Of a stretch of DNA of 64,000 bases, positions 7,951 through 41,720 are shown in pieces. The notes below the pieces were generated by a model. It made no database searches. It saw only the letters and a program-made list of their open reading frames with translations, and was not told the origin of the DNA. The DNA is from Thermoanaerobaculia bacterium (lineage in GTDB: Bacteria; Acidobacteriota; Thermoanaerobaculia; Multivoradales; JAHEKO01): positions 19,207 through 83,206 of the forward strand of contig CALZKB010000003.1 in the NCBI GenBank assembly GCA_945787575.1, in the 5' to 3' direction. Position numbers and translations under genes: made by a program. The first letter of the stretch is position 1; every line of letters begins with the position of its first letter.

Positions 7951-10101
7951 TTACGGCACGGTGTTGGACCAGGCCGAGGTGTCGCCGGACTCGAAGCCGT
8001 CGGTGAAGATGGTGAAGCCGGGGAGGCGCCACACCTCGCCGCCGGTGGGGTTATTTCCTGTCCCCGCATAGAGATTGGTGTGGTAGACGGCCAGCGTGGA
8101 AACGTCTTCGTTGATGCCGTCGCCGAAGCCGTCCAGGTTGGCCTGAATCCACCGTGCGCCGTCGTACCGCCAAATCTCTCCACCGCTATCGGCATTGAAG
8201 GTTCCCGCATAGAGGTGGCCGTCGTGTGTGATCAACCAGAACGCGTCGTAATTACTGCCATCGCCGAAACCATCGGCGTTGACCTGGGTCCAGGTTGCGC
8301 CGTCGAATACCCACACTTCGGCTCCCGTCACCTCGTTGGTCGTTCCAGCGTAGAGAGAGCCGCCAAAGACCTCGAGGGACCCGATCTCCTCATTGTTGGC
8401 GTCACCGAAACCACTACTGCCGATCTGGCTCCAGGTGCTCCCGTCGTATCGCCACACCTCGGCTCCCGTTGCCGAGTTATGTGTCGGAGCATAGAGCTGG
8501 CCGTCGTACACGGCGAGGTCGAACGCATCGCGATTGTCGACATTGCCGAAGCCGTCCGTGTTGACCTGGCTCCAGATTGCGCCGTCAAGGCGCCAGATCT
8601 CAGCGCCGGTGATCTCGTTGCCGGTGCTCACGTAGAGGAAGCCGGCATACACGTCCATCCCGTAGGCGAAGTAGTTGTTGGCATCACCGAATCCATCACT
8701 GTTGACCTGGGTCCAGTTCATGCCGTCATAGCTCCACAGTTCGGCCCCCGTGACTTCGTTGTAGGTGCCAGCGAAGAGAAGACCGTCGTAGACGGCTCGA
8801 GGAAAGGCGCCGAGGTTGTCCGCATCGCCTAGGCCGTCGCTGCCGGCCTGCGTCCAGGTCGCGCCATCGTAGCTCCAGACCTCGGCCCCGGTGAACTCGT
8901 TCCAGGTACCCGCGAAGAGGCGCCCGTCGTAGGAGCTATCAGGGGAAACGGTTTCGTTCTGTGCGTTGCCGAATCCGCCGCTGCCGACCTGAGTCCATTC
9001 GAACCCCAGGAGACACCACACTTCGCCGCCGGTCGCGTTGTTCCGAGTTCCCATGAGAGGGCGGTCGCCGAAGGTGGCTGAAGTCCAGATCTGTATGTTG
9101 TTGACATCGCCGAAGCCGTCGATGTTGGCTTGGGTCCAAGACGAGCCGTCGAAGCGCCAGACCCCTACCGCGGTCACCGCGTTGTTCGCTCCCACATAGA
9201 GATAGCCGCCCCAGGCGTTCAACCCCTCGGCATCGGTGTTGTTGCTGTCGCCGAAGCCGTCGCTGTTGACCTGAGTCCAGTTCGAGCCGTCGAACGCCCA
9301 GACCTCCGCGCCGGTCACTGTGTTGCCCGTCGACGCGTAGAGGGAACCGCCATAGACGGCGAGCGACCACGCCTTGGTGTTGTTCACATCGCCAAAGCCG
9401 GAGGTGTTGACTTGGGCCCAGTTGGCGCCGTCGTAGCTCCACACCTCGGCGCCGGTGACATCATTGCGGACCGCCGCATAGAGCGAGTCGCCGAAGACGA
9501 CGAGCGCGGTCACCTCGCGGTTGTTGACGTCGCCGAAGCCGTCGGCGTTGGCTTGATCCCAGTTCACGCCGTCGTAGCTCCACACCTCGACCCCGGTAAC
9601 GCCGTTGCTGACACCGGCAAAGAGCTCGCCGTCGTAGACCGCTTCGGGCATGGCGGTGGTGTTGTTCGCATCACCGAAGCCGTCGCTGTTGACCTGAGTC
9701 CAATCCGCCCCGTCGAAGCTCCACACCTCGGCCCCGGTGGTGCCATTGGTCGTGCCCACTAACAGCAGACCGTCATAGACGGTGCCGGGCCAGGTCACGA
9801 TGTTCCCCGTGTCCCCGAAGCCACCGCTGGCGACTTGGGTCCAGGTCTGGCCGTCAAAGCTCCACACCTGCGCTCCGGCAGCCCCATTGAAGGTCCCCGC
9901 ATAGAGCAGATCGCCATAGACGGCGCCCAGGACGGCGGTCCTGTTGTTCCCATCCCCGAAGCCACCGCCGCTCAACTGCAGCCAGTCTTCGGGATCGGCC
10001 GCAGGCCGGTGGGCGAGCTCCACCGGGCTCGCGGGCAGCGCCACGGCGAGGGTGAATCCAACTACAGCAAGGATGGAACGAACTCTCGGTTTGAGTCTCA
10101 T
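7951..10101 (-). CDS. Secreted beta-propeller repeat protein (14 x 47 aa) with GFESGDTSAW C-terminal tail
   Basis: AAGGAGGAGG RBS and ATG at 10101; signal peptide MRLKPRVRSILAVVGFTLAVALPA; repeat WTQVNxDGFGDxNN...YAGTxNxxTGAEVWSYDG. Confidence 0.88.
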   Translation of the reverse strand: MRLKPRVRSILAVVGFTLAVALPASPVELAHRPAADPEDWLQLSGGGFGDGNNRTAVLGAVYGDLLYAGTFNGAAGAQVWSFDGQTWTQVASGGFGDTGNIVTWPGTVYDGLLLVGTTNGTTGAEVWSFDGADWTQVNSDGFGDANNTTAMPEAVYDGELFAGVSNGVTGVEVWSYDGVNWDQANADGFGDVNNREVTALVVFGDSLYAAVRNDVTGAEVWSYDGANWAQVNTSGFGDVNNTKAWSLAVYGGSLYASTGNTVTGAEVWAFDGSNWTQVNSDGFGDSNNTDAEGLNAWGGYLYVGANNAVTAVGVWRFDGSSWTQANIDGFGDVNNIQIWTSATFGDRPLMGTRNNATGGEVWCLLGFEWTQVGSGGFGNAQNETVSPDSSYDGRLFAGTWNEFTGAEVWSYDGATWTQAGSDGLGDADNLGAFPRAVYDGLLFAGTYNEVTGAELWSYDGMNWTQVNSDGFGDANNYFAYGMDVYAGFLYVSTGNEITGAEIWRLDGAIWSQVNTDGFGNVDNRDAFDLAVYDGQLYAPTHNSATGAEVWRYDGSTWSQIGSSGFGDANNEEIGSLEVFGGSLYAGTTNEVTGAEVWVFDGATWTQVNADGFGDGSNYDAFWLITHDGHLYAGTFNADSGGEIWRYDGARWIQANLDGFGDGINEDVSTLAVYHTNLYAGTGNNPTGGEVWRLPGFTIFTDGFESGDTSAWSNTVP

Positions 10102-10142
10102 GGCACAGATCCTCCTCCTTGTCGGTTGCGGAAGGTGGGTAC

Positions 10143-10252
10143 CTTCGGCAGCCCGGCTGTCGTGGGATCTGCGGGGCGGCGTCCGCCGCCGCAAGAAGCG
10201 AGGACCCGTGGCTTTGCGGCACCGGCTTTTGCCGGTTGTGCCTTTATCGAAG
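10143..10252 (-). ncRNA. c-di-GMP-I (GEMM) riboswitch aptamer
   Basis: Minus strand: CUUCG-AUAAAGGCACAA-CCGGC-AAAA-GCCGG-UGCCGCAAAGCCACGGGUCCU...ACGACAGCCGGGCUGC-CGAAG. P1 is CUUCG/CGAAG; GCAAAGCC core; lies in the 5' UTR of the propeller gene. Confidence 0.82.
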
Positions 10253-10342
10253 CGTCCTCTAAGTGGACAGCCTCGGAACGATTCGACCAGACCCGACAGG
10301 GTGGGCCGAACCACCACCCCTTTGGATGGGTTGAACGGGTGC

Positions 10343-10525
10343 CTAGTCGCCGCTCGCCAGCGACTCGCGCTTGTCGATCGCCGCTTGGGCCGCGGTGCCG
10401 ACGGCGCAGGCGGAGCACGGCGGCTGGTTGCGGTCTCGCCGGGGCACGAGCTGGCGGACGAGCGCCCAGAGTCCCCACGCCGCAGCGACGGTGACGAGCC
10501 AGAACTGCCAGTCGCGCCAAGGCAT
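10343..10525 (-). CDS. FeoB-associated Cys-rich small membrane protein
   Basis: TGATG overlap with the feoB stop; one TM (DWQFWLVTVAAAWGLWALV) then CSAC. Confidence 0.75.
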   Translation of the reverse strand: MPWRDWQFWLVTVAAAWGLWALVRQLVPRRDRNQPPCSACAVGTAAQAAIDKRESLASGD

Positions 10526-12558
10526 CAAGCGACTCCCACGAGGTGCAGCCCCTGATAGGTGGCGAAGGCGAAGATCCACGCGAGACCGCTCATCCACAAG
10601 AACTGGAGCACCGCCCAACGCCAGGCGCCGGTCTCGCGGCGAGTGACGACCAAGGTCGGCAGGCACTGCATGGCGAGGACGAAGAAGACCAACAAGCTGG
10701 CCGCGGTCGCCGTCGTGAACAGCGCCGTTCCGTCGTCGCGCCGCGCGTCACGAACCCGCGAGAAGACGCCCTCGTCCGCCGGGTCGTCGACCTCCTCGCC
10801 GGTGATCAGAACGGCCAGGGTCGACACGAAGACCTCGCGCGCGAGAAAGCTGGTGAGCACCCCGACCGTCAACTGCCAGTCGTAACCCAGAGGCGCGTAG
10901 ATCGGCTGGATGAGCCGGCCCAGACGGCCGGCGAAGCTCGCCGCCTGCCGATGCGGCGCCTCGAGGCTCGCCGCCTCGGCGGTCAGCTCGAGCGCCCGGT
11001 CGGGATCGCTGGCTTCGATCGCCACCGCTTCGGCGCGCAGCGCCTCCGCTTCCGGAGGCGCCTCGACCTTGGGATAAGCCGACAGCCACCACATCACGAT
11101 GCAGATGGCGAGAATGACGGTGCCCGCCTTCTGCAGGAATGTCTTGCCCTGCTGGTAGGCGGTGAGCACGGCGGTCCGCAACGCCGGCAGCTTGTACGAC
11201 GGCAGCTCCAGAACCATCGGTCGCGAGTGACCCTTGAGCAGCGTGCGGCGGGCCACGAGAGCACTCGTCATCGCCGCCAGCGCCCCCAGCAGGTAACAGC
11301 CGGTAAACGCCAGACCCGCCATCAGCGGCCGGTCGCGGAAGAGCAGACTGGTGAGCAAGATGTAGACCGGCAGACGGGCCGAACAGCTCATGAAGGGTGC
11401 GACCAGGATCGTGGCCAGGCGGTCGCGGCGATCGGGAATCAGGCTGGTAGAGAGGATTCCCGGTATCGCGCAGGCGTGGCTCGACAGCAGGGGGACGAAG
11501 GCGTGACCCGGCAGCCCGAAGCGGCACAGGAGCCGGTCGGTGACGAACGCCGCGCGCGCCAGATAGCCGGTGTCTTCGAGCAGGCTGATGAGGAAGAACA
11601 GCAGGCAGATCTGCGGCAGGAAGACCACGGTCCCGGCGATGCCGGCGATGATCCCGTTGGAGAGCAGGTCGCGCACCGCGCCGGCCGGCAGGGTCGCTCG
11701 CACCCAATCGCCCATCACGTCGAAAGTCAGGTCGATCAGATCCATCGGAATCGTCGCGAGGGCGAAGACCGTCCAGAACAGTCCCGCCATCACCACCGCG
11801 AAGAGCAGGACACCGAGGACCGAGTGGGTGAATGCCTGGTCGAGCCGCTCGGTGAGCGTGTCGCCGCCGCTGCCGACGGCACCCTCGCCGCCGACACTCT
11901 CCTCCACGACGCGGTCGGCCCAATCGAGCAGCGCGTCGCCGTCGGCGAGGTCCGGCACCGGCAGCTCGGGGGTAACCGGCGGCGTACCCAACGCCGAGGC
12001 GAGGGTGAGCCGCAGCTCCTCCACTCCCCGGCCGCTGCGGGCGACCACCGGCACTACCGGACAGCCGAGGAGCTGCCCGATGCGGACGGGGTCGAGCGTC
12101 AGTCCGCGCCGTTGCGCGAGGTCGACCATGTTGAGGGCGACGATGGTCGGCACCCCGATGCCGAGCAGTTCGCCGACCAAGCACAGGCTGCGGGAGAGGT
12201 TGGTGGCATCGGCGACCACGATCGCGGCATCCGGCTGACGGTAGACCCCCTCGCCTTCGAGGACGGCGCGGCAGATCCGCGCCTCCGGCAGCTCGAGGAA
12301 GAGGCGGTAGGTTCCGGGCAGGTCGACGATCTCGGCCGCCTCGCCAGACTCGTCGGCCAGCTGGAAGCGGCCAACTCGCGCGTCGGTCGTGGTCCCGGGA
12401 AAATTGGCGGTCTTCGCACGCAGACCGCAAAGCCGGTTGAAGAGCGTCGTCTTGCCGGTGTTCGGCGCGCCGAGGAGGGCGACCCGAATGCGACGCGCGC
12501 TCGAGGCGGCGACGACCGCCTTCTCCTCCTCTGCCCGCCAAGGGGCAGCCGTGCTCAT
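10525..12558 (-). CDS. feoB: Ferrous iron transporter B
   Basis: GAPNTGKT, ANFPGTT, DLPG, NMVD G motifs; LEDTGYLARAA, PFMSCSARLP, AREVFVST. ATG at 12558 overlaps the feoA stop. Confidence 0.95.
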   Translation of the reverse strand: MSTAAPWRAEEEKAVVAASSARRIRVALLGAPNTGKTTLFNRLCGLRAKTANFPGTTTDARVGRFQLADESGEAAEIVDLPGTYRLFLELPEARICRAVLEGEGVYRQPDAAIVVADATNLSRSLCLVGELLGIGVPTIVALNMVDLAQRRGLTLDPVRIGQLLGCPVVPVVARSGRGVEELRLTLASALGTPPVTPELPVPDLADGDALLDWADRVVEESVGGEGAVGSGGDTLTERLDQAFTHSVLGVLLFAVVMAGLFWTVFALATIPMDLIDLTFDVMGDWVRATLPAGAVRDLLSNGIIAGIAGTVVFLPQICLLFFLISLLEDTGYLARAAFVTDRLLCRFGLPGHAFVPLLSSHACAIPGILSTSLIPDRRDRLATILVAPFMSCSARLPVYILLTSLLFRDRPLMAGLAFTGCYLLGALAAMTSALVARRTLLKGHSRPMVLELPSYKLPALRTAVLTAYQQGKTFLQKAGTVILAICIVMWWLSAYPKVEAPPEAEALRAEAVAIEASDPDRALELTAEAASLEAPHRQAASFAGRLGRLIQPIYAPLGYDWQLTVGVLTSFLAREVFVSTLAVLITGEEVDDPADEGVFSRVRDARRDDGTALFTTATAASLLVFFVLAMQCLPTLVVTRRETGAWRWAVLQFLWMSGLAWIFAFATYQGLHLVGVA

Positions 12559-12860
12559 CCTCCGACCGGGAGCTCCGACGAGGAGTCGTCGACGGGCTCG
12601 ACCATGAGACGCTCGGCGATCGCCTCGGAGAGGCCGACGCGCATGCCGCGCACCTCGACGATGCACAGCGACCCGGTCTTGCAGACGAAGAGGCGCCGGT
12701 CAGGGGTCAGCCCAAGAGCGGTGAGTAGATCCCGATCGGAGTCGCGAAGATCACTCGCGCGCAGTCGCGCGGTGGTCCCTTCGGGCACTAAGGTGAGGGG
12801 AAGCCAAGCGTCCGGCCGAGGGGAGGGGAATCGCCTGCTAGCGGGCTGAGAGGAGATCAT
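12555..12860 (-). CDS. feoA: Ferrous iron transport protein A
   Basis: LLTALGLTP...IVEVRGMRVGLSEAIAERLMV; directly upstream of feoB. Confidence 0.88.
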   Translation of the reverse strand: MISSQPASRRFPSPRPDAWLPLTLVPEGTTARLRASDLRDSDRDLLTALGLTPDRRLFVCKTGSLCIVEVRGMRVGLSEAIAERLMVEPVDDSSSELPVGG

Positions 12861-12870
12861 TGGCTTCCTT

Positions 12871-12889
12871 AATGAGACTTTATCTCAAT
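12871..12889. promoter_or_regulatory. Fur-box-like operator upstream of feoA
   Basis: AATGAGACTTTATCTCAAT, an imperfect 9-1-9 palindrome resembling AATGAGAATnATTCTCATT; AT-rich island 10 nt before the feoA ATG. Confidence 0.7.
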
Positions 12890-13163
12890 AGTCTCCAGTC
12901 TAGGATAGCACGTGCGACGCAACCGCAAACCACCCTTTCCGGTAGTAGAGGGCTCGCCCGCTTGGCCAGCGGCCGAGTCAAGCACGTCGCTGCCTGGGCG
13001 GCGTTCATGGCGAATCCCGAGGCGAGCAAGTTCGCAGGCGGGGTCCAGAGTCGGGGCGGTTGACATCTACGGCCAATCGAGAGCGGACTGGGCTCGCCGC
13101 CCGGTCCTTCTGCGATACTCCGCGGATGCCGTGCCTCTCTCTTGGGCCGAGACCGAGCGCGGG

Positions 13164-14750
13164 ATGACTTCCGCGTCGTCCTACTCGGCAGCCGGCCGGG
13201 CACTGTCGCGGCTCGTGCCCCCGTTGCGGTTGGAACCTTCGCCGACCGACGAGATGGCTCTGCTCAGCCTCGGCCGGGTCCGAGCGGAGAATCGCTTCCT
13301 GTTCCACGCTGCGCTCTGGGCGGGGCTGTTCGGCTACCTGCTGTTTATCAACCTGCTGACCGACCCGCTGCCGCTGTGGAGCCTACGCCCGCTATCGATC
13401 TGGGGCTCGATCGTCCTGTTCGACGGCTTTCTCGTCTTCGTGCCCGGCCGCCGGAAGTACGAGGCGAGGCACCGGCGCCTGCGGCAGGCCTTGCAGGAGG
13501 CCACCCGAGCGCGGGGTGACGAAGCGGTCGGCGAGCTGGACGTCCTTCGCGGCGAGCTGATCAGCTCGGTCGAGGAGGCGGAGGCGGCGCTGCGGCAGTC
13601 CGACCCCGAAACCGCCGCGGACGTCGCTCGCGGCCGCTCGCACGCGTTGACGGTGATCGCCTGGCTCGACGAGGCCGAGCGCCTGCTGGCCCGAGGCCGC
13701 GACGATCGCGAGCTCCGCCAGGAGGTCGTCGTCGCACTCTCGAGACCGACCGGGACGAGCGAGCGCGACGCCCTTCGGGCGTTGCTCGGCCAGCTCGATG
13801 TGCAGGACCTCAACCTGGCCGCTCTCGAAAGGGAAGTGACCCGCCGCAGATCCCTGCTCGAGTCGTTCTTCCTGGCGATCGAGAGCGCCAGCCTCGCGGA
13901 GGGGAGCGAGCACATACTGGCCGCCGTCGGCGACCCGATTCGCGAACGGGTGACGCTGCTGGCGGAGGTCGCCGCCGCCCGTGACAGCGAAGCGGCGCCG
14001 CTGGCCACCGGGATCCCGGCGGCGCGGATCCGCCGCGAAGTCGATCTCGCCCGCGACCTCCAGCAGTCGATCCTCCCACGTCGAGCCCCGCAACTTGCCG
14101 GACTCACCGTCGCTCATCGCTACCGCCCGTCGAGCGAGGTCGGCGGCGATTTCTACGACTTCTACGCTACCGGCGAGAACCGGCTGCTGGTGGCGGTGGG
14201 CGACGCCAGCGGTCACGGCCTCGACAGCTCGATGGTCAGCAGCATGGCCAAGAGCGCCCTCTACACCCAGGTCTCCGCGGGCCGACCCCTCGGCGAGGCG
14301 ATGGCGGAGCTCAACCGGCTGATGTGCGACACCCTCGGCCGGCGTCGTTTGATGACCCTCCTGCTGATGGAGGTCGACTCGGCCCGCCAGACCGCCTCGT
14401 GGGTGAGCGCCGGCCAGGTCTGGCCGCTGCTGCGGCGCGCGGGAGAAGTCGAGGAGCTCGAGCAGGCCGGCTATCCCCTCGGGGTCCGACGGGAGACCCG
14501 GTACCAGGTCCGCGAAACGCGCTTCGAGCCGGGCGACCTGCTCCTGCTGCTGACCGACGGCTACCCGGAGGCGGCTGATCGGGACGATGAGCCGTACGGC
14601 TGGCAGCAGCTCGCCGAGCGCCTCGTCACGCTGGGCGACTCCGATCCGAAGAGCGTCATCCGGACGCTCGAGGAAGACCTCTCCCGGCACCTGGCGGGTT
14701 CGGCGCCCCAAGATGACGTCACCCTAGTGGCGATCCGCTTCGAACGATGA
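13164..14750 (+). CDS. 2TM-domain, coiled-coil, SpoIIE/PP2C phosphatase
   Basis: ARDLQQSILP, VGGDFYD, GDASGHG, TDG, DDVT motifs; N-terminal FLFHAALW...INLLT...PLSIWG. Start uncertain (ORF open from 12912). Confidence 0.82.
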   Translation: MTSASSYSAAGRALSRLVPPLRLEPSPTDEMALLSLGRVRAENRFLFHAALWAGLFGYLLFINLLTDPLPLWSLRPLSIWGSIVLFDGFLVFVPGRRKYEARHRRLRQALQEATRARGDEAVGELDVLRGELISSVEEAEAALRQSDPETAADVARGRSHALTVIAWLDEAERLLARGRDDRELRQEVVVALSRPTGTSERDALRALLGQLDVQDLNLAALEREVTRRRSLLESFFLAIESASLAEGSEHILAAVGDPIRERVTLLAEVAAARDSEAAPLATGIPAARIRREVDLARDLQQSILPRRAPQLAGLTVAHRYRPSSEVGGDFYDFYATGENRLLVAVGDASGHGLDSSMVSSMAKSALYTQVSAGRPLGEAMAELNRLMCDTLGRRRLMTLLLMEVDSARQTASWVSAGQVWPLLRRAGEVEELEQAGYPLGVRRETRYQVRETRFEPGDLLLLLTDGYPEAADRDDEPYGWQQLAERLVTLGDSDPKSVIRTLEEDLSRHLAGSAPQDDVTLVAIRFER

Positions 14751-24142: not shown

Positions 24143-27100
24143 TCAGGGAATCGTCACGTCCCAAGCCGAGGTGTCGCCCGATTCGAAGCCATCGGCGAAC
24201 ACCAGCTGCTGGCACAGGGTGCATCGATCGCAGCTATCCGCTACCCCGTTGCCGTTCAGATCGGCCTCACAGGAAGCCGCGTAGGCACCGGGCCTACCGC
24301 CGGCGGCCAGACAGGCGTCGGGCAGCATCTCGGCGCAACCTCCCGGAAGACAGCAGGAGACCTCCACGGCGCCGGCCACCGGTGCGGACAGCACCCTGAG
24401 GACGTCGTCGCGGTCGAACGGAATCACGAACGGGTGGGAGTTCTCCTTCAGCTCCGCTCCTTGCTCGTCCTTGAAGCGATCCATCTGCTGCACGTCTACG
24501 AACGCTCGGCTGGCTCCCGGGGCGGAGAGCGTTGCCCGCAGCTCGGGCACCAGCGGATCGGTCACCTCCACCAGCTGCAGTCCCAGAGCACGGTTGGCGA
24601 CCACCGCGTAGTCGTCGACACCGGGCGGTGCGATCTGGCTCGCGACGTCGACGTCCACGACCTCTCCACCGAGGTCGAGCGTGCCGGCGACGGTCGGGGC
24701 GTCGGGGTGGGTGATGTCGAAGACCCGCAGCCCCCCGGCGCCGGCGGCGACGTAGAGGTAGTCGTGCTCGCGCGACGGGACGACATCGTCTGCCGGCAGG
24801 TAGCGGGTGTAGGTGTCGAGCGCTTGCGCGCCATCGAGGGCGATGCCGTCAACCAGCCGTGGGGTGGCGAAATCAGGAAGCAGATCGACGATTCGAACGC
24901 CGTAACCGGGATCGGCAACGTAGGCGCGGACCGCGAACGCCGGACCCATCTGGTAGTGGGCGTAGAGAGCGACGTCAGCGGCGTGGAGGCCGTCGGCGGC
25001 GCCGAGGATTTGCGGAGCCGAGTGGTCGGCGATGTCCACCACCACCAGCCCGTCGTCGCCGGCCGCGACGAAGAGATGAGCGCCCCAGGGCACCGCGCGC
25101 AGGGCTCCCGGTAGGGGTACCGTCGCAACCCAGACGAGGGTCTCGGGCTGCTCGTTGTCGTAGATCTGGACCCCGACCCCGGCGTCGACCACGTAGAGAT
25201 AGCGAGCCACGCGCGCGACGTCGACGGCATCGATCCCGGTGACGGTGGCGACCGGCTCGGTGGGCAGCCCGGCACGCAGGTCAAAGACCGACAACCCACC
25301 AGGCCCGGATGCCACGTAGAGATAGTCGGTCGTCCCGTCCACCAGATCGGGCAGGACCGCGAGGGCGTGGGGCGTCGTCGCCGGAATGGTGCCCACCCAC
25401 TGGGGCAAGTCGGGATCGCTCCACCGATCGAACACCGAGACACCGCCGTCCGCGAGCAGAAAGGCCCAGGTTCTGGCCAGCGAATAGCTTCCGGTACCCA
25501 ATCCCAAGGCCGGTGGTGAGCGGTGACACTCGACGCAGGTACGCACCTCGCCCGCCGGTCTCACGCTGTGGGCGTGCACCGGTTGATGGGCCAGACCCGA
25601 CTTGCCGTTGGCGGTCGACGGCATCTTGAAGTCGAGGATCTTCGAGCCGTCCGCCGCCGTCACGTCGGCGATCGGGTGGCAGCCGACGATGTAGGGAGCG
25701 ACCCGGCCCTCTTTGTTGGGGCCCATCGAGAAGGCCCGCAGCGCCTCGAAGACCTTGTTGTTGGTCGACACCTTGCCCACCTCGTAGTCGCGCGTGATCA
25801 GGTTCTGCCCCACTTCACGCTCGTCGCGCTCGAAGTGGCAGCCGTAGCAGTTGGGCACCCACGACGTGTGACAGGCGTAGCACTCGAGACCGCCTTCGTC
25901 CTTCACGTGCTCGCTGGTCATCGCGAGCGCGGCTCTCGGGTTGTAGTCACTCGACGCGGGGTCGACGAGATCCTTGATCTGAAGTGGTACGTGATGGACT
26001 CCGTCGACCTTGGAGATCAGGATCGGCTCGCTGCCGCTGGTGTCGACGTTGGGCAACGGCAGGCCGTCGTTGTCGAGGAAGGTGGCGTAGGCGTCCGGCG
26101 TTCCGTGGCAAGTCCGACACTCGATCCGGGTCGCCTGGTCCATGTGGCCCCAGATGTTGCCGTCACCCATCACCTCGCTCTTGACGTGGCAGTCGATGCA
26201 GTGCAGGCCCCGCTCGTGATGGAAGTCCGGGGGATTGGTCGCGGCGTCGGTGTAGTGGTAGTTGCGGTTGAACCGCTCGTCGGTGGTGCCGGGCACCCCC
26301 GGCCCGGAGGGCAGCCGCGGAGGCATCTGGGCCCTCCCGGTGAAGGTCAGGCCGATGCGCGCGCCGCGATGATGGCAGTGCAGGCACTGAGAGGTCGCAA
26401 TCGCCTTGGTGACCCGGTGGATGATCGGGTGCCCCGGCTCCTCGTGATCGATCGAGGAATCCGCGCTCTGCGAAAGGCCGTCGTCGGCGTAGGGCATGTG
26501 ACAGGCGACGCAGCCGTCCGCTCGGTAAGTCCCGTCTTCGCCCTCCGCGCCGCGGTAGCCTCGGCCGCGCGACCACAGATGACAACGGGCGCAGGCTTGG
26601 CCCGGCACGGCGGCATAGTGGGTGGCCACCTTGGACGGGTCGGCACTCGGGTCGTAGGTGATGAGATCGTCGAGACTCTCGACCGCCCCTTCGTCGATGG
26701 GCACCGTGCCGTCTTCGTCGACGACCGCGAACATGCCGTAGATCGGGGTCTTGGTGTCGACCACGCCGTTCTGGTAGAGCCCTCCGCTGACGTGGCCGGC
26801 GTTGTTGGTCATCAGGTTCTTGAGCACGGTCTCGGCCTCGGCCGGGTGGCAGAGGGCGCAAGTGTCGTCCACGACGCGCAGGTTGCTCGGGTTGACGAAA
26901 CGTTGGTACGGCAGGTCTTCCTCGAGCGGCGCGGTCGTCACGTCGTCGATGACCAACCGCGTCGGCTGAACGTGGGCGGCGAGCTTGGTCGTCGCCTGTC
27001 CATCGCCGCCGTGGCAGAACGTGCAGTGGAGCTCGAAGCCCATCTCCTCGGTGGCGTTCTCGATCTCCCCGTGGCAGGTGCGGCAACCGGGATCGTCACC

Positions 27101-27268
27101 TAGGCCGTCGAGACGGCTCGACACCGCCTCGATCCGGGGCTGGGACAGGTCCGCCGGTCGAGAGCGGTGCTGCGCCCGGACGCCCTCGGCCGCCACCACG
27201 GCGGCAATCAGGACGAACCCGATGACGGGTCCGATGAAGCGCGCGCGAGCTCTCTGCTTGGGGGCCTT
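24143..27268 (-). CDS. Multiheme c-type cytochrome (11 CxxCH) with LVIVD-like repeats, Cys-rich linker and GFESGDTSAW tail; start codon defective
   Basis: CRTCH, CTFCH, CALCH, CARCH, CVACH, CLHCH, CIDCH, CRTCH, CYACH, CYGCH, CVECH; YLYVASGPGGLSVFD-type repeats; signal peptide encoded upstream of the listed GTG. Confidence 0.88.
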   Translation of the reverse strand, partial: KAPKQRARARFIGPVIGFVLIAAVVAAEGVRAQHRSRPADLSQPRIEAVSSRLDGLGDDPGCRTCHGEIENATEEMGFELHCTFCHGGDGQATTKLAAHVQPTRLVIDDVTTAPLEEDLPYQRFVNPSNLRVVDDTCALCHPAEAETVLKNLMTNNAGHVSGGLYQNGVVDTKTPIYGMFAVVDEDGTVPIDEGAVESLDDLITYDPSADPSKVATHYAAVPGQACARCHLWSRGRGYRGAEGEDGTYRADGCVACHMPYADDGLSQSADSSIDHEEPGHPIIHRVTKAIATSQCLHCHHRGARIGLTFTGRAQMPPRLPSGPGVPGTTDERFNRNYHYTDAATNPPDFHHERGLHCIDCHVKSEVMGDGNIWGHMDQATRIECRTCHGTPDAYATFLDNDGLPLPNVDTSGSEPILISKVDGVHHVPLQIKDLVDPASSDYNPRAALAMTSEHVKDEGGLECYACHTSWVPNCYGCHFERDEREVGQNLITRDYEVGKVSTNNKVFEALRAFSMGPNKEGRVAPYIVGCHPIADVTAADGSKILDFKMPSTANGKSGLAHQPVHAHSVRPAGEVRTCVECHRSPPALGLGTGSYSLARTWAFLLADGGVSVFDRWSDPDLPQWVGTIPATTPHALAVLPDLVDGTTDYLYVASGPGGLSVFDLRAGLPTEPVATVTGIDAVDVARVARYLYVVDAGVGVQIYDNEQPETLVWVATVPLPGALRAVPWGAHLFVAAGDDGLVVVDIADHSAPQILGAADGLHAADVALYAHYQMGPAFAVRAYVADPGYGVRIVDLLPDFATPRLVDGIALDGAQALDTYTRYLPADDVVPSREHDYLYVAAGAGGLRVFDITHPDAPTVAGTLDLGGEVVDVDVASQIAPPGVDDYAVVANRALGLQLVEVTDPLVPELRATLSAPGASRAFVDVQQMDRFKDEQGAELKENSHPFVIPFDRDDVLRVLSAPVAGAVEVSCCLPGGCAEMLPDACLAAGGRPGAYAASCEADLNGNGVADSCDRCTLCQQLVFADGFESGDTSAWDVTIP

Positions 27269-31697: not shown

Positions 31698-32475
31698 ATG
31701 GCGAGCTCTCAGCGGGTCGGTTCGGCGCTCCTCGCCGGCTGCATGCTGTCCCTGCCGGCGGCTACCAAGGAGCTCCTCTCCTGCGCGACGCCGGAGTCGG
31801 CGGCCGCTTTCGAGCCTGTCTACGAAGGGGTAGATCCTTCCGATTGCTCGTTCACGTCCACAACCCCGATCCGGCCTACGATCCGACGACGCCCCGCGTT
31901 ATCGAGGTCGTCGTCCACGTGATCATGGATTCCTCCTGCCTCGAGGGCGCCTTCTCCGACGAGATGGTGGCGAGTCAGATCGAGATCCTCAACGAGGATT
32001 TCCTGGCCCTGGCCGGCACTCCCGGCGCGAACGGCACCGACGCCCAGATTCGATTCGATTTCGCCGACGCCGACCCTCAGGCTGAGCCGACGACCGGGAT
32101 CACTCGCGACAACACGATCTGGTTCAACGACGACGGCGACTACTGGGAGACCCTAGCGTGGGATCCGCACCGCTACCTGAATCTCTACACCAACACCGCC
32201 TCCGGCGCCCGCGGTAACGTCCCCTTCCTTCCGCTCAGGGCGGGGTCGGCGGTAACGCCGACCGAGTGGTGCTCAACCATCTGGTCTTCGGCCGCAACGG
32301 TGCGTTCTACATGGAGCTCACCGACGACTTGTGCATGGAGGGTTTCACCGCCGAGCAAGCAAAGCGAGTGCGCTGCACGCTCGAGCACTACCGTCGCGAC
32401 CTCGCCGATTCTCCGATCTTCGAGTACGGCTTCGAATCAGGCGATACGAGCGCTTGGACGGCCTCGGTCCCGTAG
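31698..32475 (+). pseudogene. M43 (ulilysin/pappalysin-like) metalloprotease relic with GFESGDTSAW tail
   Basis: Three frames: signal peptide; VVVHVI...QIEILNEDF...WDPHRYLNLY; YMELTDDLCMEGFTAEQ. The HExxH region is missing. Confidence 0.8.
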
Positions 32476-32499
32476 ACCTGCAGACAGCGACACGCCACC

Positions 32500-33129
32500 G
32501 TGATCGAGCAAGCCGACCACCGGTCTCCCGTCGAACGGATCGACGCCTCACGCCTCCCCGAGGCGGTCGCCGTCCACTGCGAGGCTTTCTTCGACTACCC
32601 GACCATGCGCTTCGTCCTCGAAGGGTCGGCCAGCGACTACGAAGATCGACTGGCAGCTCTCATCGGGCTCTTCTTGGACGTTACCTACCTCAAGAACGGA
32701 GTCGTCTTCGGGATCTCCGAGAACGGCGAGCTCGTCGCCGCGGCGGACGCGGTGCGCTCGGGCTCGCCCGAGCCACCCGAGCTCGGCCGACGGCGCCAGT
32801 TGCTGTGGGAGCGTCTGGGCGAAGGAGCTCGCCTACGCTATGAAGCCTACTCCGCCCTCACCGAGCCGTTTGCGCCCGACGCGCCACACTACTACCTCAG
32901 CATGCTCGGCGTGCGGCGGCGCTTCGCCGGTCGAGGTCTGGCGCGCCCTCTTCTCGAAGCAGTCCAAGCGCTCTCTCTGGCCGATCCGATTTCGACCGGG
33001 GTGGCGCTCGAGACCGAGGACCTCGACAACGTCGGCTTCTATCAGCACTTCGGCTATCGAATCGTCGGCCAGGCTCGAGTGGGCGACGGCGTGGAATCGT
33101 GGGGGTTCTTCAGGCAGGACGAGGACTAG
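32500..33129 (+). CDS. GNAT N-acetyltransferase
   Basis: AFFDYP, HYYLSMLGV...GRGLARPLL, LETEDLDNVGFYQHFGY. Confidence 0.9.
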   Translation: MIEQADHRSPVERIDASRLPEAVAVHCEAFFDYPTMRFVLEGSASDYEDRLAALIGLFLDVTYLKNGVVFGISENGELVAAADAVRSGSPEPPELGRRRQLLWERLGEGARLRYEAYSALTEPFAPDAPHYYLSMLGVRRRFAGRGLARPLLEAVQALSLADPISTGVALETEDLDNVGFYQHFGYRIVGQARVGDGVESWGFFRQDED

Positions 33130-34020: not shown

Positions 34021-34118
34021 CGTGGCCCCGCTCTCGCGACGGCGAACGCCACCCTACCGGGTGTTTTCGGAAGTTGCCGAGCGTCGTTAGGCTCTGCGAA
34101 CGAGGAGGTGAAGAGACG

Positions 34119-34595: not shown

Positions 34596-34661
34596 CCTCG
34601 CTCGGCTGGTCGACAGCCTTGCCGCGGGCGCGATGGTGGGGCCGCTTCGCGGCAGTCCCGC

Positions 34662-36638: not shown

Positions 36639-37207
36639 TGGTGATCCACCTGCAAGATCGGGCTGACGCCGGAGAACACCGGCTCGAGCTCGACGCCCAG
36701 CGCGTCCCCGAACTTGCTGACGAAGATGTAGACCGAGATGGTGAAGACCGCCTCGACGATCTGCGGCTCGGTGAAGTGCTCGTGGAGACGTGACCACAGC
36801 TCCTTCGAGACTCGATTGGCGTCGACGCCGATCTGCACCGTGAGGTCGAGTAGCGCCTTCTCCGCGTCGCTGAAATGAGGGCTCGTCTGGTAGCGATCGT
36901 CACCGATGTCGGCGATCTTCTCCTGCGAGATGCCCAGTCGCTGGCTGAGGGTCTCGTGCTGGACGACGCAGTACTGACACTGATTGCGGTGGGTCGCCTT
37001 GAGAATCAGGAGCTCCTTGGTCGTCCAATCGAGCTCGCCGTCCTTGAGGATCGCCATGACGAGCTCGGTGAAGACGCTGCCGAGCTCGGGGGTGTGCCCG
37101 AACACCTTGAAGATGTTGAGGAGCATCTCGAAGCGCTCCTCGGCCTTGTCGTAGAAGGCGTTGGTGGCAGCATCGGCCTGCTCGCGTTCGACGTAGGAAA
37201 CGGTCAT
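36635..37207 (-). CDS. AhpD/carboxymuconolactone decarboxylase-family protein
   Basis: KELLILKAT...NQCQYCVVQH, FSDAEKALL, HFTEPQIVE. Confidence 0.88.
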   Translation of the reverse strand: MTVSYVEREQADAATNAFYDKAEERFEMLLNIFKVFGHTPELGSVFTELVMAILKDGELDWTTKELLILKATHRNQCQYCVVQHETLSQRLGISQEKIADIGDDRYQTSPHFSDAEKALLDLTVQIGVDANRVSKELWSRLHEHFTEPQIVEAVFTISVYIFVSKFGDALGVELEPVFSGVSPILQVDHH

Positions 37208-37404
37208 CGTGGCTCTCCTCTATGCTGCGTCCAGCGGTTGGCGGTCGGCTGTGTAGCCTACCGCGATCGCGTCCGTCGTGGTCGCCTTCGGGCGACGGAT
37301 CAGTGCTCACGACCGTAGGCCCCGGCGAGAGAGGGATGGGAGCCCAGGGGTCTTGAGCCGAGCCCTCTGAATCACCCAGGATCAGAGTGCCGGCCGAGCA
37401 AGAC

Positions 37405-37745
37405 ATGAGCGAAGCCATCAGGGGAATTCACCACGTCACCGCGATCGCCACCGATCCTCAACGCAACGTCGACTTCTACGCTGGAGTGCTGGGTTTACGC
37501 CTGGCCAAGAAGACCGTCAACTTCGACGATCCGGCACCTACCACATCTACTACGGCGACGAGCTGGGGCGTCCCGGCACCATCCTGACGTTCTTTCCGTG
37601 GCCGCTGGCACGGCGCGGAAGCCGCGGCTTCGGCCAGGCCACGGTGACCTCGTTCTCGATTCCCGACGGATCGCTCGGCTTCTGGCAGACCCGCCTCGGA
37701 GAGCACGGCGTCGTCGCCGAGGAGCCGAAGTCTCGCGAGAGATGA
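37405..37745 (+). pseudogene. Ring-cleaving dioxygenase (VOC family) relic
   Basis: GIHHVTAI...KKTVNFDDP, 1-nt frameshift, then TYHIYYGDELGRPGTILTFFPWP; stops after about 113 codons. Confidence 0.85.
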
Positions 37746-37921
37746 TCGACTCCCTGTTCGACGGTGGCGATCGATCGACGTCGCAGGAGTAAGGGAGGCA
37801 AGGCGAACCGGGGGCTTTTGTCCCCGCCTGTTGAGCCTCCCACTGCCGATCGACCTCAACCCTGGCAGGGTGCGGTTGCGGCATCCGCGCTCGGGAGCCG
37901 GTGCCGAAGAGGCGCGACTCC

Positions 37922-39250
37922 GTGAGACATCCATCCGCAATCCTCTGGCTCTTCGGTGTCTTCGTCGCGGCGGCCTCCGTGGCTCAGCCGCCCTGCGCAC
38001 CGCTGGCTCCGCCCGAAGAGCCGATCGTCGAGGTCTTCCCCTCCGAGGTGGCCCAGTTGCGAGACATCGTGGCGGCGGCATCGACCGGCACGACGATCCT
38101 GCTTCACGACGGTCTCTACGACCTGAGCCACGGCGACGGCGCAGATCGGCTGAGCTTCAACACGCCAGGCGTGACTCTGAGATCGGTGAGCGGCGATCGG
38201 GACGCGGTGGTTCTCGACGGCGCCTACGGCACGAACGAGCTGATCTCCATCCTGGCCTCCGATGTCACCATCGCCGACCTCACGGTGAAGCGAGCCTTCG
38301 ACCATCCGATCCACATTTCGGGCAACGCCGGCAGTCCGATCACCGGAATCGTCCTTCACAACCTGCGCGTCGTCGACCCCGGCCAGCAAGCCGTCAAGAT
38401 CAACCCGATCGACGACGGCTACGTGGACTTCGGGGTGATGCAGTGCAGCCTCATCGAGCTGACCCCGGTCGGCCGGGAGGAGATCCGAGACAACTGTTAC
38501 ACCGGCGGGCTGGATGCCCACCAGGCTTGGGGTTGGCTGGTTCGTCGGAATCGGATCGAGGGCTTCTGGTGCGATCAGGGGCTGTCGGAGCACGGTATCC
38601 ATTTCTGGCGGGGATCGCGGGACACCCTGGTGGAGGAGAACGTCATCGTCGACTGTGCGCGCGGGATCGGCTTCGGCCTCGGCGCGGACGGATCGGCGCG
38701 GGAGTACCCCGACGACCCCTACCCGGATATCGGCTACATGGGCCACATCGACGGCGTCATTCGGAACAACTTCGTCGCCGCCGATGATCCGGCCCTCTTC
38801 GCCTCCGCGAGCGGGTTCGACACCGGGGTCGGACTCGAACAGGCTCACGGCACCGAGGTGCACCACAACAGTGTGGCGTCGACTCAGACCCCCCGCTCAT
38901 CCTCGATCGAATGGCGCTTCCCCAACACGTTGGCGGAGATCGCCAACAACCTGGCGAGCTCCGTGCTCAAGCCCCGCGACGGCGGGGTCGCGAACCTGAC
39001 GACGAACATCGAAGACGCCTCGCTATCCTGGTTCGCCGAGATCGGGGCGGGCGATTTGCACTTGACCGAATCGGCCTCCGCCGCGGTCGACGGCGGTACG
39101 GCTCTCCCGCCCGGCGCCGCCGACTTCGATATCGATCTGGAGATCCGTGACGGCAACCCCGACGTCGGAGCCGATGAGGTGCGAGAGGTGCTGTTCATGG
39201 ACGGTTTCGAGTCGGGCGACACCTCGGCGTGGTCGGTGGTCGTGCCGTAG
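37922..39250 (+). CDS. Secreted right-handed beta-helix protein with GFESGDTSAW tail
   Basis: Signal peptide; GTTILLHDGLY, IRNNF, DLHLTESASAAVDGG...PDVGADE. Confidence 0.85.
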   Translation: MRHPSAILWLFGVFVAAASVAQPPCAPLAPPEEPIVEVFPSEVAQLRDIVAAASTGTTILLHDGLYDLSHGDGADRLSFNTPGVTLRSVSGDRDAVVLDGAYGTNELISILASDVTIADLTVKRAFDHPIHISGNAGSPITGIVLHNLRVVDPGQQAVKINPIDDGYVDFGVMQCSLIELTPVGREEIRDNCYTGGLDAHQAWGWLVRRNRIEGFWCDQGLSEHGIHFWRGSRDTLVEENVIVDCARGIGFGLGADGSAREYPDDPYPDIGYMGHIDGVIRNNFVAADDPALFASASGFDTGVGLEQAHGTEVHHNSVASTQTPRSSSIEWRFPNTLAEIANNLASSVLKPRDGGVANLTTNIEDASLSWFAEIGAGDLHLTESASAAVDGGTALPPGAADFDIDLEIRDGNPDVGADEVREVLFMDGFESGDTSAWSVVVP

Positions 39251-39276
39251 CACCGGCGGAGTCTTGCCGCGGGCCG

Positions 39277-40527
39277 CTAGGGATGAACCCCCGTCGCGTG
39301 CAATCGAAAGACGATTTCCGGGGTCGCGAGATCGATCTCGGTGCGCACGAAAAGCACTCCGGTCGTCGACGCCGGGTCGTAGGCGCAGAGCCCCGGCCCG
39401 AGCCCGGTGCTGTCGGACGAGCGAAGATCGGCGCGCACGATCGGCTTGCCCGCCGCATCGCGACGTAGCCGGGGTGGATCGAGCGACTCGAGCTCGAGCA
39501 CCCGGCAGCCTCGGTGGCGGGGACGTGGCGACAACCGTTTCGGAGTGACGAGAAGCAAGAGGCTCCCATCGCGGGCTCGAGCCACGTCCGGCTGGGTCAG
39601 GACGTGACCCCCGAGGGCTGCGGCATCGCGGCGATCGCTCAGACGTCCCCGCCAAGTCCAGTCGAGACGGGCCCTCGGTCCCTCGCCGTCGGTGGCGAAG
39701 ACGCCGAGGAACTCCGCGTTCCGGTTGCGCCTTCCGGTCAACGGATCGATGACCAGACACTGGGCCACCATGTAGAGCGTCTCGTCGAGACCGTAGAGCG
39801 CCGGCTCGGTCCACAGCGCACAGCGGGCGAGTTCGGGATCGAGCGTCGAGAGATCGAGGTCCGGGCGCCAGGCCGGATCGGTGAGAGCACCGCCGAGCCG
39901 AGCCTCACGACCCCGGCCGAGCCCGCGCGGACTCGGGGATCGGGAAAGGCGAAAGTGGACGCTCTGCGGGCGGCGGTCTTCGTCGCCGAACGGCTCAAAG
40001 TAGCGCAAGTGCATGCCGAACCACCGGGTGCCGGATCGTCTCTCGAGCGGCGCCAAGGTCGATACCTCGTGTACCGACACTCCCTTGCCGCCGGTCGGGC
40101 TTGGATCGGTCTCGTGCGCCGAAGTGGCGAGGCTACGCACGAACTGCCAGCTCTCGCCCCCGTCATCGCTCGAGGCGAGATGGATGCTCACTCCGAACTC
40201 GGGACTCGACCGCGGTCTGTGGAGATGGAGATAGGAATAGGAGAGCCACAGGCGGTCACTCGACGGATCCTTGCGGACCGCGGGGTCGCCGTACCCGCGG
40301 AAGGGGCTGGGCGAGGGGCCGGGCAGGGTGAAGAAGGGATCGCCCTCGATCCGCATCTCGGGACACTGCGGGTTGTCGGCGCGGCAGTCGAAGCGCACCG
40401 GCACCGCCCCGGCCGCGGCTGCGGACACCAGCAGGACGGCACTCAGTGCCAGCACCGCCGCCCGCGCGAACTCGATCCGCGCCCCCTCGTTCCCGGCCGA
40501 GCTCCTCGCGACCCTCGTTGATCTCAT
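39277..40527 (-). CDS. Secreted sialidase-like/Asp-box propeller protein
   Basis: Signal peptide; GYGDPAVRKD, SSDDGGESW Asp-box, WTEPALY. Confidence 0.68.
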   Translation of the reverse strand: MRSTRVARSSAGNEGARIEFARAAVLALSAVLLVSAAAAGAVPVRFDCRADNPQCPEMRIEGDPFFTLPGPSPSPFRGYGDPAVRKDPSSDRLWLSYSYLHLHRPRSSPEFGVSIHLASSDDGGESWQFVRSLATSAHETDPSPTGGKGVSVHEVSTLAPLERRSGTRWFGMHLRYFEPFGDEDRRPQSVHFRLSRSPSPRGLGRGREARLGGALTDPAWRPDLDLSTLDPELARCALWTEPALYGLDETLYMVAQCLVIDPLTGRRNRNAEFLGVFATDGEGPRARLDWTWRGRLSDRRDAAALGGHVLTQPDVARARDGSLLLLVTPKRLSPRPRHRGCRVLELESLDPPRLRRDAAGKPIVRADLRSSDSTGLGPGLCAYDPASTTGVLFVRTEIDLATPEIVFRLHATGVHP

Positions 40528-40684
40528 CCAGGCCTCCCTTCTGCCGGCAGGGCACCGGCGTCTTCACCCATTTGGGGTCGCGAGGCCCTCGCTCGTATGA
40601 CTCGAAACCCGGGGACGACCGGCGAGACCGCAGTGACGATTCGGTCCGAACGAGCGCTCCACGTGCTAGGTTTTCCGGTACGCC

Positions 40685-41656
40685 ATGTCCGCTTCGCCCA
40701 CCGCATCGACCACTACTCCTCTCCTCGACGCCGCCAAGTTCCGCGACCCGCGGCGGACCGCCACCGGCGAGGAGCGCGCCCAAGTCGAGCTCGAAACCCT
40801 CGAGACTCTGTGGTTCAATACCGGAACGCTGTGCAACATCGAGTGTCGGCGCTGCTACATCGAGTCGGGCCCCACCAACGACCGCCTCGTCTACATCGGT
40901 GCCGACGAGGTGGAGCGCTACCTCGACGAGATCGCCGAGCTCGGCCTGACGACCCGCACGATCGGCTTCACCGGCGGCGAACCATTCATGAATCCGGAGT
41001 TTCTCGTGATGGTGGAAGAGTGCCTGAACCGCGGTTTCCGGGTGCTGGTGCTGACCAACGCCATGCGGCCTCTGATGCTGCCGGCGACCCGCGCCCGACT
41101 ACTGCGGCTGCACGAGAGATTCGGTCAGAGGCTCCACCTGCGGGTCAGCCTCGACCACTACACGAGAGCGCTGCACGAGGTCGAGCGCGGTCCACGCTCC
41201 TGGGATTCGACGCTGCGCGGCCTCGGCTGGCTGGTGACCCACGGGTTTCACCTGTCGGTCGCGGGACGAACCTGCTGGAACGAGGAGGAGGCCGCGGCTC
41301 GGCTCGGTTACGCGCGCCTTTTTGCCGAGCTCGGGCTGGCGTGCGATGCCGGGGACCCGGCGCAGCTCGTGCTCTTCCCCGAGATGGACCCGACTCGCGA
41401 CGTACCGGAGATCACGAGCGACTGTTGGGGCGCCCTCGGCGTCGAGCCGTCCAGCCTCATGTGCGCCACCAGTCGCATGGTGGTCAAACGCCGGGCGGCG
41501 TCGTCGACTACGGTCGTCAGCTGTACGCTGCTGCCCTACGACGCTCGGTTCGAGCTCGGGTCCACCCTCCGCGAGGCCTGCGGTCCGATGCCGCTCAACC
41601 ATCCTCACTGCGCGCGCTTCTGTGTTCTCGGCGGGGGGTCCTGCAGCGCCGGTTGA
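40685..41656 (+). CDS. Radical SAM protein (ArsS-like architecture, function unknown)
   Basis: TLWFNTGTLCNIECRRC, FTGGEPF, LTNA, Cys-rich C-terminus HCARFCVLGGGSC. Confidence 0.9.
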   Translation: MSASPTASTTTPLLDAAKFRDPRRTATGEERAQVELETLETLWFNTGTLCNIECRRCYIESGPTNDRLVYIGADEVERYLDEIAELGLTTRTIGFTGGEPFMNPEFLVMVEECLNRGFRVLVLTNAMRPLMLPATRARLLRLHERFGQRLHLRVSLDHYTRALHEVERGPRSWDSTLRGLGWLVTHGFHLSVAGRTCWNEEEAAARLGYARLFAELGLACDAGDPAQLVLFPEMDPTRDVPEITSDCWGALGVEPSSLMCATSRMVVKRRAASSTTVVSCTLLPYDARFELGSTLREACGPMPLNHPHCARFCVLGGGSCSAG

Positions 41657-41660
41657 CGGT

Positions 41661-41720
41661 TCGGGGCACGACCGTCGACCAAGCCGAGGTCTTGCCCGAC
41701 TCGCAGCCCGCCACCACCGT
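41661..41720 (-). pseudogene. Decayed GFESGDTSAW C-terminal tail
   Basis: TVVAGCESGKTSAWSTVVP followed by CGA where the other copies have the stop. Confidence 0.7.

Follow-up and report, generated by a model that had tools for sequence, protein, structure and literature searches.

In cellulosomes, enzymes dock onto cohesin proteins via a small C-terminal module, the dockerin, and the cohesin proteins can be anchored by surface-layer homology (SLH) domains. The dockerin is an autonomous calcium-binding fold of ~70 residues (~60-70, with a duplicated F-hand), and it binds the surface of a complete cohesin. In chaperone-usher pili, an incomplete beta fold is completed by a short strand from another polypeptide, which is known as donor-strand complementation. 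SpyTag and SpyCatcher are an engineered split-domain pair that joins covalently via an isopeptide bond. We know of no natural, proteome-wide counterpart of such split-domain tag pairs, and our literature searches found none. Beta-strand complementation in pili is also reported between PilY1/PilC and minor pilins (PMC12918778). Here we describe a tail of 19 residues that ends four genes in a 64,000-nucleotide stretch of a Thermoanaerobaculia genome (the window, C3:19207-83206 of the source genome, G000), and that is found on ~70 proteins across the same genome.

We think it probable that this tail is a docking tag that completes a secreted, lectin-fold receptor in trans, and so tethers the cargo to a lectin-like or envelope-anchoring module. 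The cargo would pass through Sec carrying the tail as a short, free end. The receptor would be encoded separately and exported by Sec as well; at ~190 residues, it would be the same domain as the one the tail derives from, minus exactly the tail segment. By pairing an edge strand with the tail, it would rebuild the full domain. About 70 different enzymes and binding proteins could then share one such module without needing copies of their own. The proposed system resembles cohesin-dockerin in function and donor-strand complementation in mechanism, and is unrelated to either in sequence and fold.

To count the tail, we scanned all six frames of the source genome (Acidobacteriota, Thermoanaerobaculia; 5.59 Mb in 484 contigs, 66% G+C, 97.5% complete). 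We found 80 matches to the motif, and 72 of them stop exactly 5 residues past the tryptophan. The terminal form in these 72 open reading frames (ORFs) is xFxDGFESGDTxAWSxTVP-stop. Across an alignment of 71 tails, the consensus is IFADGFESGDTSAWSxTVP, and five residues (F, F, G, D, and W) never vary. Besides being acidic (D, E, D), the tail has three invariant aromatic residues, and it ends in proline in 68 of 72 cases. A 24-column profile built from the 71 tails gives per-genome E-values down to 1e-15. This recurrence is not chance.

An earlier note on this stretch, which reported the four tails and a decayed fifth copy, had argued that the conservation is at the level of protein. The full set agrees: mean identity among the 72 tails is 0.82 at codon positions 1 and 2 and 0.59 at position 3, the serine columns mix TCN and AGY codons, and no pair of the 72 is identical in DNA. 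The note had also named frequent internal occurrence as something that would tell against a C-terminal tag, and the whole-genome scan found the opposite (72/80 terminal). Also upheld is its view of the tail as a portable tag for diverse cargo, here a protein-level C-terminal tag on Sec-exported proteins: the 77 tail-bearing ORFs match 93 Pfam families. We confirmed that the phenomenon is far larger than the note stated: it is a proteome-wide tag, on ~70 unrelated exported proteins.

The cargo families include FG-GAP, BNR, LVIVD, Sortilin-Vps10, lactonase, S8 subtilase, trypsin-like, GDSL lipase, and Big_5. As judged from these assignments, the cargo is a typical set of exoproteins with soluble-type domains. 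With a crude hydropathy heuristic, and after excluding 5 fragments of less than 120 amino acids, we found a signal-peptide-like start in 48 of the 67 terminal-tail ORFs that we evaluated. Among the rest, 5 are cut by contig ends and 14 lack a signal.

The origin of the tail became apparent from low-copy relatives, in which the motif is often non-terminal and is followed by ~180 further residues. The motif and the following residues align as a domain of ~196 residues (profile A3). Complete copies of this domain account for three of the eight non-terminal matches in the source genome (on contigs C365, C74, and C82). The signature of the domain is IFxDGFExGxxxxW directly before a ..LxVxxxAAxxGxxGL.. 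strand, with a C-terminal ..FDxFxSxR strand, and the tails align to positions 1-20 of the A3 profile. Since the same motif opens the full domains, the tail is, on this alignment, homologous to the N-terminal segment of a lectin-fold domain, and detached from it.

Neither the parent domain nor the receptor described below has a significant match in Pfam, NCBIfam, or the sequences of the PDB. The family is nevertheless large: in a library of 1.84 billion proteins, the receptor-subfamily profile matches 3868 representatives (counted at 50% identity), and 641 of these reach E <= 1e-30. Some of the library matches are giant proteins in which the domain is repeated up to 6 times in tandem, and these copies start with IFxDGFExGxxxAWS (8 proteins read; segments from 84 proteins).

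AlphaFold2 (AF2) modelled a typical full domain (28-row alignment) as all-beta, with a predicted local distance difference test score (pLDDT) of 94.3 and a predicted template modelling score of 0.91. The model builds the motif into the fold, since mean pLDDT is 74 over residues 1-10 and 89 over residues 11-20. Foldseek with this model gave 151 PDB matches at E <= 0.001, and each of the 46 that were listed is a concanavalin-A-like (ConA-like) or lectin-type jelly roll. These neighbours include PL7/PL18 alginate lyases, LNS/LamG, galectin, CBM40, TtX122, and the lectin-like subdomain of the clostridial neurotoxin binding domain. With TMq of 0.4-0.6, E of about 1e-6, and 7-15% identity, the likeness is at the level of fold only. 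The parent domain is thus predicted to be an undescribed concanavalin-A-like two-sheet jelly roll of ~200 residues. The predicted fold, together with the tandem use in giant proteins, suggests a binding module of the lectin or carbohydrate-binding-module (CBM) kind.

One other non-terminal match has a different arrangement. In C54 (locus 4-816, minus strand), the motif LFSDGFESGNTLAW comes immediately after the signal peptide, and is followed by a proline-rich linker and a domain of ~250 residues. Such an arrangement resembles an N-terminal form of the tag, as would be expected for docking but not for a signal at the C-terminus.

The candidate partner is a secreted form of the domain that lacks the motif. 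The source genome has two types:

G000 C37:8585-9199, minus strand: receptor of 205 residues, with a signal peptide and then the domain from profile position 22
G000 C224 (locus 1180-2004), plus strand: second receptor type, which has a Cys-rich insert; the gene and the start of a tail gene overlap

Both are among the A3 profile matches in this genome that start at profile positions 22-52. Orthologues of the C37 protein define the receptor subfamily (A4), which has a Sec signal peptide and then the domain without the motif segment, in about 205-245 amino acids. All 18 of the A4 proteins, from 17 genomes, have the signal peptide followed by xTLAVTxAAAxxGxFGLEV, and the motif is absent from all of them. 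Four further receptors that we checked, from G001, G023, G032, and G195, lack the motif too. Among the best 150 of the 3868 library matches, 41 are of stand-alone size (195-260 amino acids); none of the 41 contains the motif, and all of them open with a hydrophobic, signal-peptide-like stretch (judged by eye).

One receptor carries a recognisable anchor. The only receptor-type gene in G032 (locus 1471-2811, plus strand) encodes a signal peptide, the motif-less domain, and an SLH domain (PF00395, E 4.7e-12, 46.1 bits against a cut-off of 20.8), which points to tethering to the cell envelope. SLH is found in none of the 18 A4 receptors. By eye, further SLH-like repeats follow the PF00395 match in the G032 protein.

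The surroundings of the receptor genes were less informative. Sulfatase-family genes lie beside the receptor gene in 10 of 18 loci, which come from several families. Three of them flank the C37 receptor (locus 2-2974, 4540-5997, and 6755-9520); all three end in LEALGYL(N), and two carry lipobox-like signal peptides. We considered whether this synteny hints at a mechanism, and it gave none. Near the C37 receptor there is also an ORF with 10 transmembrane segments and no Pfam match (locus 9753-11378). A homologue search with the C37 receptor returned 5 close relatives and no functional clue. The insert of the C224 receptor has a weak match to NF045639 ("GCX_COOH / 3-coathanger stack"; E 8.7e-5, 22.3 bits against a cut-off of 26).

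In low-copy genomes, a gene with a terminal tail is directly followed by a gene for a signal peptide and a motif-less domain. The gaps in the four pairs that we read are -16, +1, -1, and +169 nucleotides (from G022, G020 (two), and G015). Two more pairs, from G020 and G013, were identified from coordinates only. The domain and the tail also occur together across genomes. With the C37 protein as the query, the domain was found in none of the 12 relatives that lack the tail. Of the 29 tail-positive genomes, 27 have it when profile matches are counted. The motif-less receptor itself is present in 20 of the 21 genomes with at least 20 tail matches, including G195, which belongs to another order.

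To ask whether the two parts could fit together, we modelled a complex of the mature C37 receptor (residues 25-205; 18 rows in the alignment) and a tail of 32 residues (71 rows). Its score was 0.82, while the best of 3 controls reached 0.02. The score mark is reached by 58 of 80 solved complexes and by 2 of 110 mismatched pairs, a calibration that is only rough for our custom alignments. At least 97% of contacts are shared between the three runs, with a pLDDT of at least 78 for the partner. The low-error contacts (203:15, 202:16, 201:17, and 204:14) have a constant sum of residue numbers, so the tail's I-F-x-D-G-F is predicted to pair in antiparallel fashion with the last strand of the receptor (199-205). 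In the model, the tail's tryptophan contacts receptor residues 53-55 and 182, and three of the four invariant residues of the receptor (E62, D199, and R205) are in the interface. Physical binding is a prediction of this model.

The tail is sharply patchy in its distribution. Among 40 relatives, 19 genomes have 20-135 matches, 8 have 1-7, G003 has 12, and 12 have none; these 12 include near-complete genomes in 1-5 contigs. Copy numbers of 35-135 recur across many genera. We also sampled the phylum, with 200 evenly drawn genomes that are each at least 90% complete, plus G000. A tail match at E <= 1e-5 was found in 12 of these 201 genomes, and only G000, two others of its order, and one from another order of the same class have multiple copies. 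The named carriers are almost all Acidobacteriota, namely Thermoanaerobaculia, 'Candidatus Multivoradales', records labelled Holophagae, and a few Vicinamibacteria and Bryobacterales. The tail is also found in single metagenome-assembled genomes labelled Gemmatimonadota, Deltaproteobacteria, and Chromatiaceae. The only cultured carrier that we found, Acanthopleuribacter pedis, was considered as a model for the split system and set aside, since the fused form is the only one it has.

The end of the tail varies by lineage, with 0 to 5 residues after the tryptophan. Tails end in ..AWSxTVP in G000, G019, and G195, and often at ..AW in G033. The stop comes right at the tryptophan in 4 of 10 sampled tails from G033, and 5 residues later in 19 of 20 from G195 and G019. 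This suggests that the minimal tag is ~14 residues and that a fixed C-terminus is not what is recognised.

These relatives suggest how the system might have evolved: cargo fused to the full domain would have given way to a split pair in an operon, and then to one universal receptor with 70-135 tagged cargo proteins per genome. A fuller version of the docking proposal would be a natural tag and catcher, made from a split lectin fold in one class of Acidobacteriota, in which a peptide of 14-19 residues on 70-135 exported proteins per genome plugs into a shared receptor. We consider the case for this version to be evenly balanced. It would further have the receptor anchored to the wall via SLH in at least one lineage, and the fused, operon-split, and universal stages all persisting in living relatives.

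The docking proposal builds on the homology of tail and domain, on the fold, on a receptor family that is truncated at a precise point, and on operon pairing, co-occurrence across genomes, and the one SLH fusion. Where in the cell the complex would sit, and what ligand the rebuilt domain would bind, we infer. Several observations weigh against the proposal. The co-occurrence across genomes is partly trivial, because the tail and the receptor are homologous. G035 is 97% complete and has 118 tail matches, yet it has no motif-less receptor that the A4 or A3 profiles can detect, and it carries only one fused full domain. (Of ten tails sampled from G035, seven stop within 6 residues past the tryptophan, five of those exactly 5 past.) G003 also lacks a receptor, but is only 77% complete. 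As for the models, halves of one fold tend to pass such a test by their likeness, so the predicted complex indicates compatibility and not binding. DSSP assigns no regular strand to residues 1-10 of the AF2 cis model, and in an earlier AF2 run, with a full domain from G000 and 8 sequences, residues 1-32 were below a pLDDT of 50. Most receptors have no anchor, lipobox, or extra domain. SLH in diderms can mean tethering in the periplasm, so a location at the surface is not established. Finally, one receptor gene would have to serve ~70 cargo proteins, which implies high expression.

The earlier note had proposed either outer-membrane translocation or surface attachment, and had stated that no machinery was known. 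Of its two options, "attachment tag" comes closer and agrees with our findings. Nothing points to an outer-membrane translocon, and we consider that option less likely than docking. As to machinery, there is now a candidate partner: a secreted domain that lacks exactly the tail segment, co-occurs with the tail, is paired with it in operons of low-copy genomes, and is predicted to bind it.

The strongest alternative, which we still think unlikely, is that the tail is a secretion or sorting signal for a translocon in the outer membrane or for a sorting enzyme, and that the motif-less proteins are a periplasmic targeting factor or pilot, or are unrelated. The extreme C-terminal position of the tail (72/80 cases in G000) and its typical exoprotein cargo would be expected of such a signal, and G000 is a diderm with two secretins. 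G035 keeps its ~118 tail matches without a detectable receptor, and a ratio of one receptor to ~70 cargo proteins suits a recycling factor better than a stoichiometric partner. However, no candidate translocon or enzyme emerged, and the tail lacks every feature of known processed signals. Nor would a sorting signal be expected to vary by lineage in its length after the tryptophan (0-5 residues), or to occur internally, as the N-terminal part of a folded domain, and once right after a signal peptide (C54). The 1:1 operon pairs and the SLH-fused receptor point to a stable complex instead of a transient signal.

The described signals were compared with the tail one family at a time, and the earlier note's statement that it matches none of them agrees with our results: it has no transmembrane helix or basic tail, it is too short for the C-terminal domain (CTD) of the type IX secretion system (T9SS), and it ends in proline. 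The tail does share some features with LPXTG/sortase, PEP-CTERM/exosortase, MYXO-CTERM, GlyGly-CTERM, and the T9SS CTD, in that it is a common C-terminal element on Sec-exported proteins with a patchy expansion across lineages. We rejected the membrane-anchored signals (LPXTG, PEP-CTERM, MYXO-CTERM, GlyGly-CTERM, and IPTL-CTERM) as the tail has no hydrophobic stretch and matches no sorting model, and we found no sorting enzyme. T9SS CTDs of type A or B are beta-sandwiches of 70-100 residues, whereas the conserved part of the tail is only 14-19 residues, and no CTD model (TIGR04183/TIGR04131) matched. A search of G000 for the SprA family gave no match, but the control also matched nowhere, so this search is uninformative about T9SS. 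The beta-signal of outer-membrane proteins, which is read by BAM, has a terminal aromatic residue, usually phenylalanine; it was excluded by the terminal proline (68/72) and the soluble-type cargo. The tail is too short to be a dockerin (PF00404), and dockerin is not among the top 25 of the 93 Pfam families of the cargo. More broadly, no NCBIfam (E <= 1) or Pfam model fell on the tail in the four window proteins, and none in NCBIfam did so for the 71 tails (E <= 10) other than NTTRR-F1, which we dismissed as noise (5/71 tails, best E 0.043). Full-text literature searches, supplements excluded, found no published description of the tail. Among the matches listed in a literature search for strand-complementation tags on secreted proteins, there was nothing on a tail/receptor system of this kind.

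It is more doubtful still that the tail acts alone, either as an acidic and aromatic hairpin that binds calcium, a glycan, or the outer membrane, or as a C-terminal degron or processing mark for a periplasmic protease. Its composition (D, E, D and three invariant aromatics) and the G035 tails without a receptor are compatible with this, and its placement at the very C-terminus might reflect recognition of the free carboxylate. But 19 residues are unlikely to fold by themselves, and in the full domains that we read or modelled, the same residues are part of the domain and not an independent unit. The ends of the tails are not conserved across lineages (..AWSxTVP versus ..AW), which argues against recognition of a fixed C-terminus, and the operon pairs would be left unexplained. 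Lastly, the decayed relic at 41661-41720, several fragments, and the full-domain fusions in relatives might suggest that the tails are functionless leftovers of repeated loss of a C-terminal domain, or a DNA cassette spread by recombination, but this is very improbable and close to refuted by the codon data: purifying selection is strong (0.82 versus 0.59, with five invariant residues in 71 tails and no identical DNA copies), 72 independent truncations at the same residue are implausible, and 35-135 matches recur in many genera.

If the tail is indeed a docking tag, then its closest functional parallel is the dockerin. In both cases, the same small C-terminal module is found on dozens of unrelated secreted proteins and binds its receptor non-covalently (as predicted here), and the receptor-SLH fusion in G032 is reminiscent of an SLH-anchored cohesin. 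Unlike a dockerin, the tag has just 14-19 residues, is not expected to fold alone, and would supply a part that the receptor's own fold lacks. There is also no relation to cohesin-dockerin in sequence or fold, most receptors have a single domain, with no multivalent scaffold evident, and the host is a diderm acidobacterium.

In mechanism, the modelled complex is closer to donor-strand and beta-strand complementation, as an incomplete beta fold would be completed in trans by antiparallel pairing at an edge. Pili, however, use this to build homotypic or fixed heterotypic fibres, whereas here one type of receptor would take the same strand from ~70 unrelated cargo proteins, and the predicted fold is a ConA-like jelly roll and not an immunoglobulin-like or pilin fold. 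As in SpyTag/SpyCatcher, a short tag has been split from a beta-rich domain and is predicted to rebind the remainder; unlike that pair, the tail and receptor are natural and presumably non-covalent. The parent domain, with its tandem arrays in giant proteins, is similar to adhesin and CBM modules.

If docking is confirmed, then a large part of the exoproteome of widespread, uncultured Acidobacteriota from soil and sediment would be organised by a docking principle that is undescribed for any bacterium. Among the proteins concerned are proteases, lipases, lactonases, sialidase-like BNR proteins, FG-GAP and LVIVD propellers, and a multihaem cytochrome. Display or retention of a whole exoproteome in diderm bacteria would then follow a new principle, and the system might offer biotechnology a ready-made orthogonal peptide-protein pair. 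The findings also include two new families, which are the jelly-roll domain of ~200 residues (3868 representatives) and the motif-less stand-alone receptor, and they give annotators a simple rule for flagging exported cargo. Furthermore, this may be a rare case in which the fission of a single-fold gene can be traced from a fused domain, via an operon pair, to a one-to-many system. If the idea of a receptor fails, a C-terminal tag that is conserved 72-fold and has no known machinery stays a sorting problem.

We now turn to the genes of the window itself, with positions given in window coordinates:

7951..10101, minus strand: exported repeat protein (ORF 7951-10317) with ~13 ELWxxDGT-like repeats
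7954-8010, minus strand: tag IFTDGFESGDTSAWSNTVP of the repeat protein, with the stop codon at 7951-7953
24143..27199, minus strand: ExtM-like multihaem cytochrome with LVIVD repeats; tag VFADGFESGDTSAWDVTIP at 24146-24202
31844..32475, plus strand: broken gene (called an M43 relic in the earlier note), with its upstream part in the frame of ORF 31844-32503
37901..39250, plus strand: exported right-handed beta-helix protein; tag LFMDGFESGDTSAWSVVVP at 39191-39247
41661..41720, minus strand: decayed tag relic, in the minus frame of 41595-42389

All four tails lie where the earlier note had placed them, and each translates exactly as it was quoted there. The note did not give strands: the tails at 32416-32475 and 39191-39250 are on the plus strand and the other two are on the minus strand. 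It had also credited all four proteins with signal-peptide-like N-termini. This is so for the repeat protein and the beta-helix protein; in the cytochrome, the hydrophobic stretch lies before the first canonical start codon, and the broken gene has no intact N-terminus.

The repeat protein is probably a beta-propeller. It matches the ELWxxDGT repeat at E 1.6e-8, which is under the family cut-off, and by the hydropathy heuristic its signal peptide MRLKPRVRSILAVVGFTLAVALPA begins at 10101. The tail profile finds its tail at C3:27160-27225 (E 1.1e-13). The beta-helix protein has a clear signal peptide, a weak match to NosD/beta_helix_1, and a Pfam match to Beta_helix at E 0.016.

The cytochrome is an unusual fusion: after a c-type cytochrome half that is similar to ExtM come LVIVD repeats, a Cys-rich stretch, and the tag. 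The N-terminal half matches NF040943 (ExtM) at E 7e-54, which is under the equivalog cut-off, and the Pfam matches are LVIVD (E 6.7e-11) and Cytochrom_c3_2 (E 8e-8). This fusion may be an extracellular redox protein. Its true start is uncertain, because the first canonical start codon comes just after a signal-like hydrophobic stretch.

The broken gene is frameshifted and lacks an intact N-terminus; its final 69 codons (32266-32475) are in a different frame and end in the tag IFEYGFESGDTSAWTASVP (32416-32472). We could not confirm that it is an M43 peptidase, as it has no Pfam match and its sole match is to TIGR03952 (metzincin) at E 0.1.

The decayed fifth copy is real: it reads ...GCESGKTSAWSTVVP and continues for 22 more residues, so it is not terminal. 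Upstream of it in the same frame there is no credible cargo ORF, and the sequence looks non-coding. An intact small ORF, MAHVKRTIRIDAALEEV..., adjoins the relic (window 41990-42700, minus strand, minus frame 0). This ORF looks like an ordinary cytoplasmic protein, which suggests that the relic tag was orphaned between genes.

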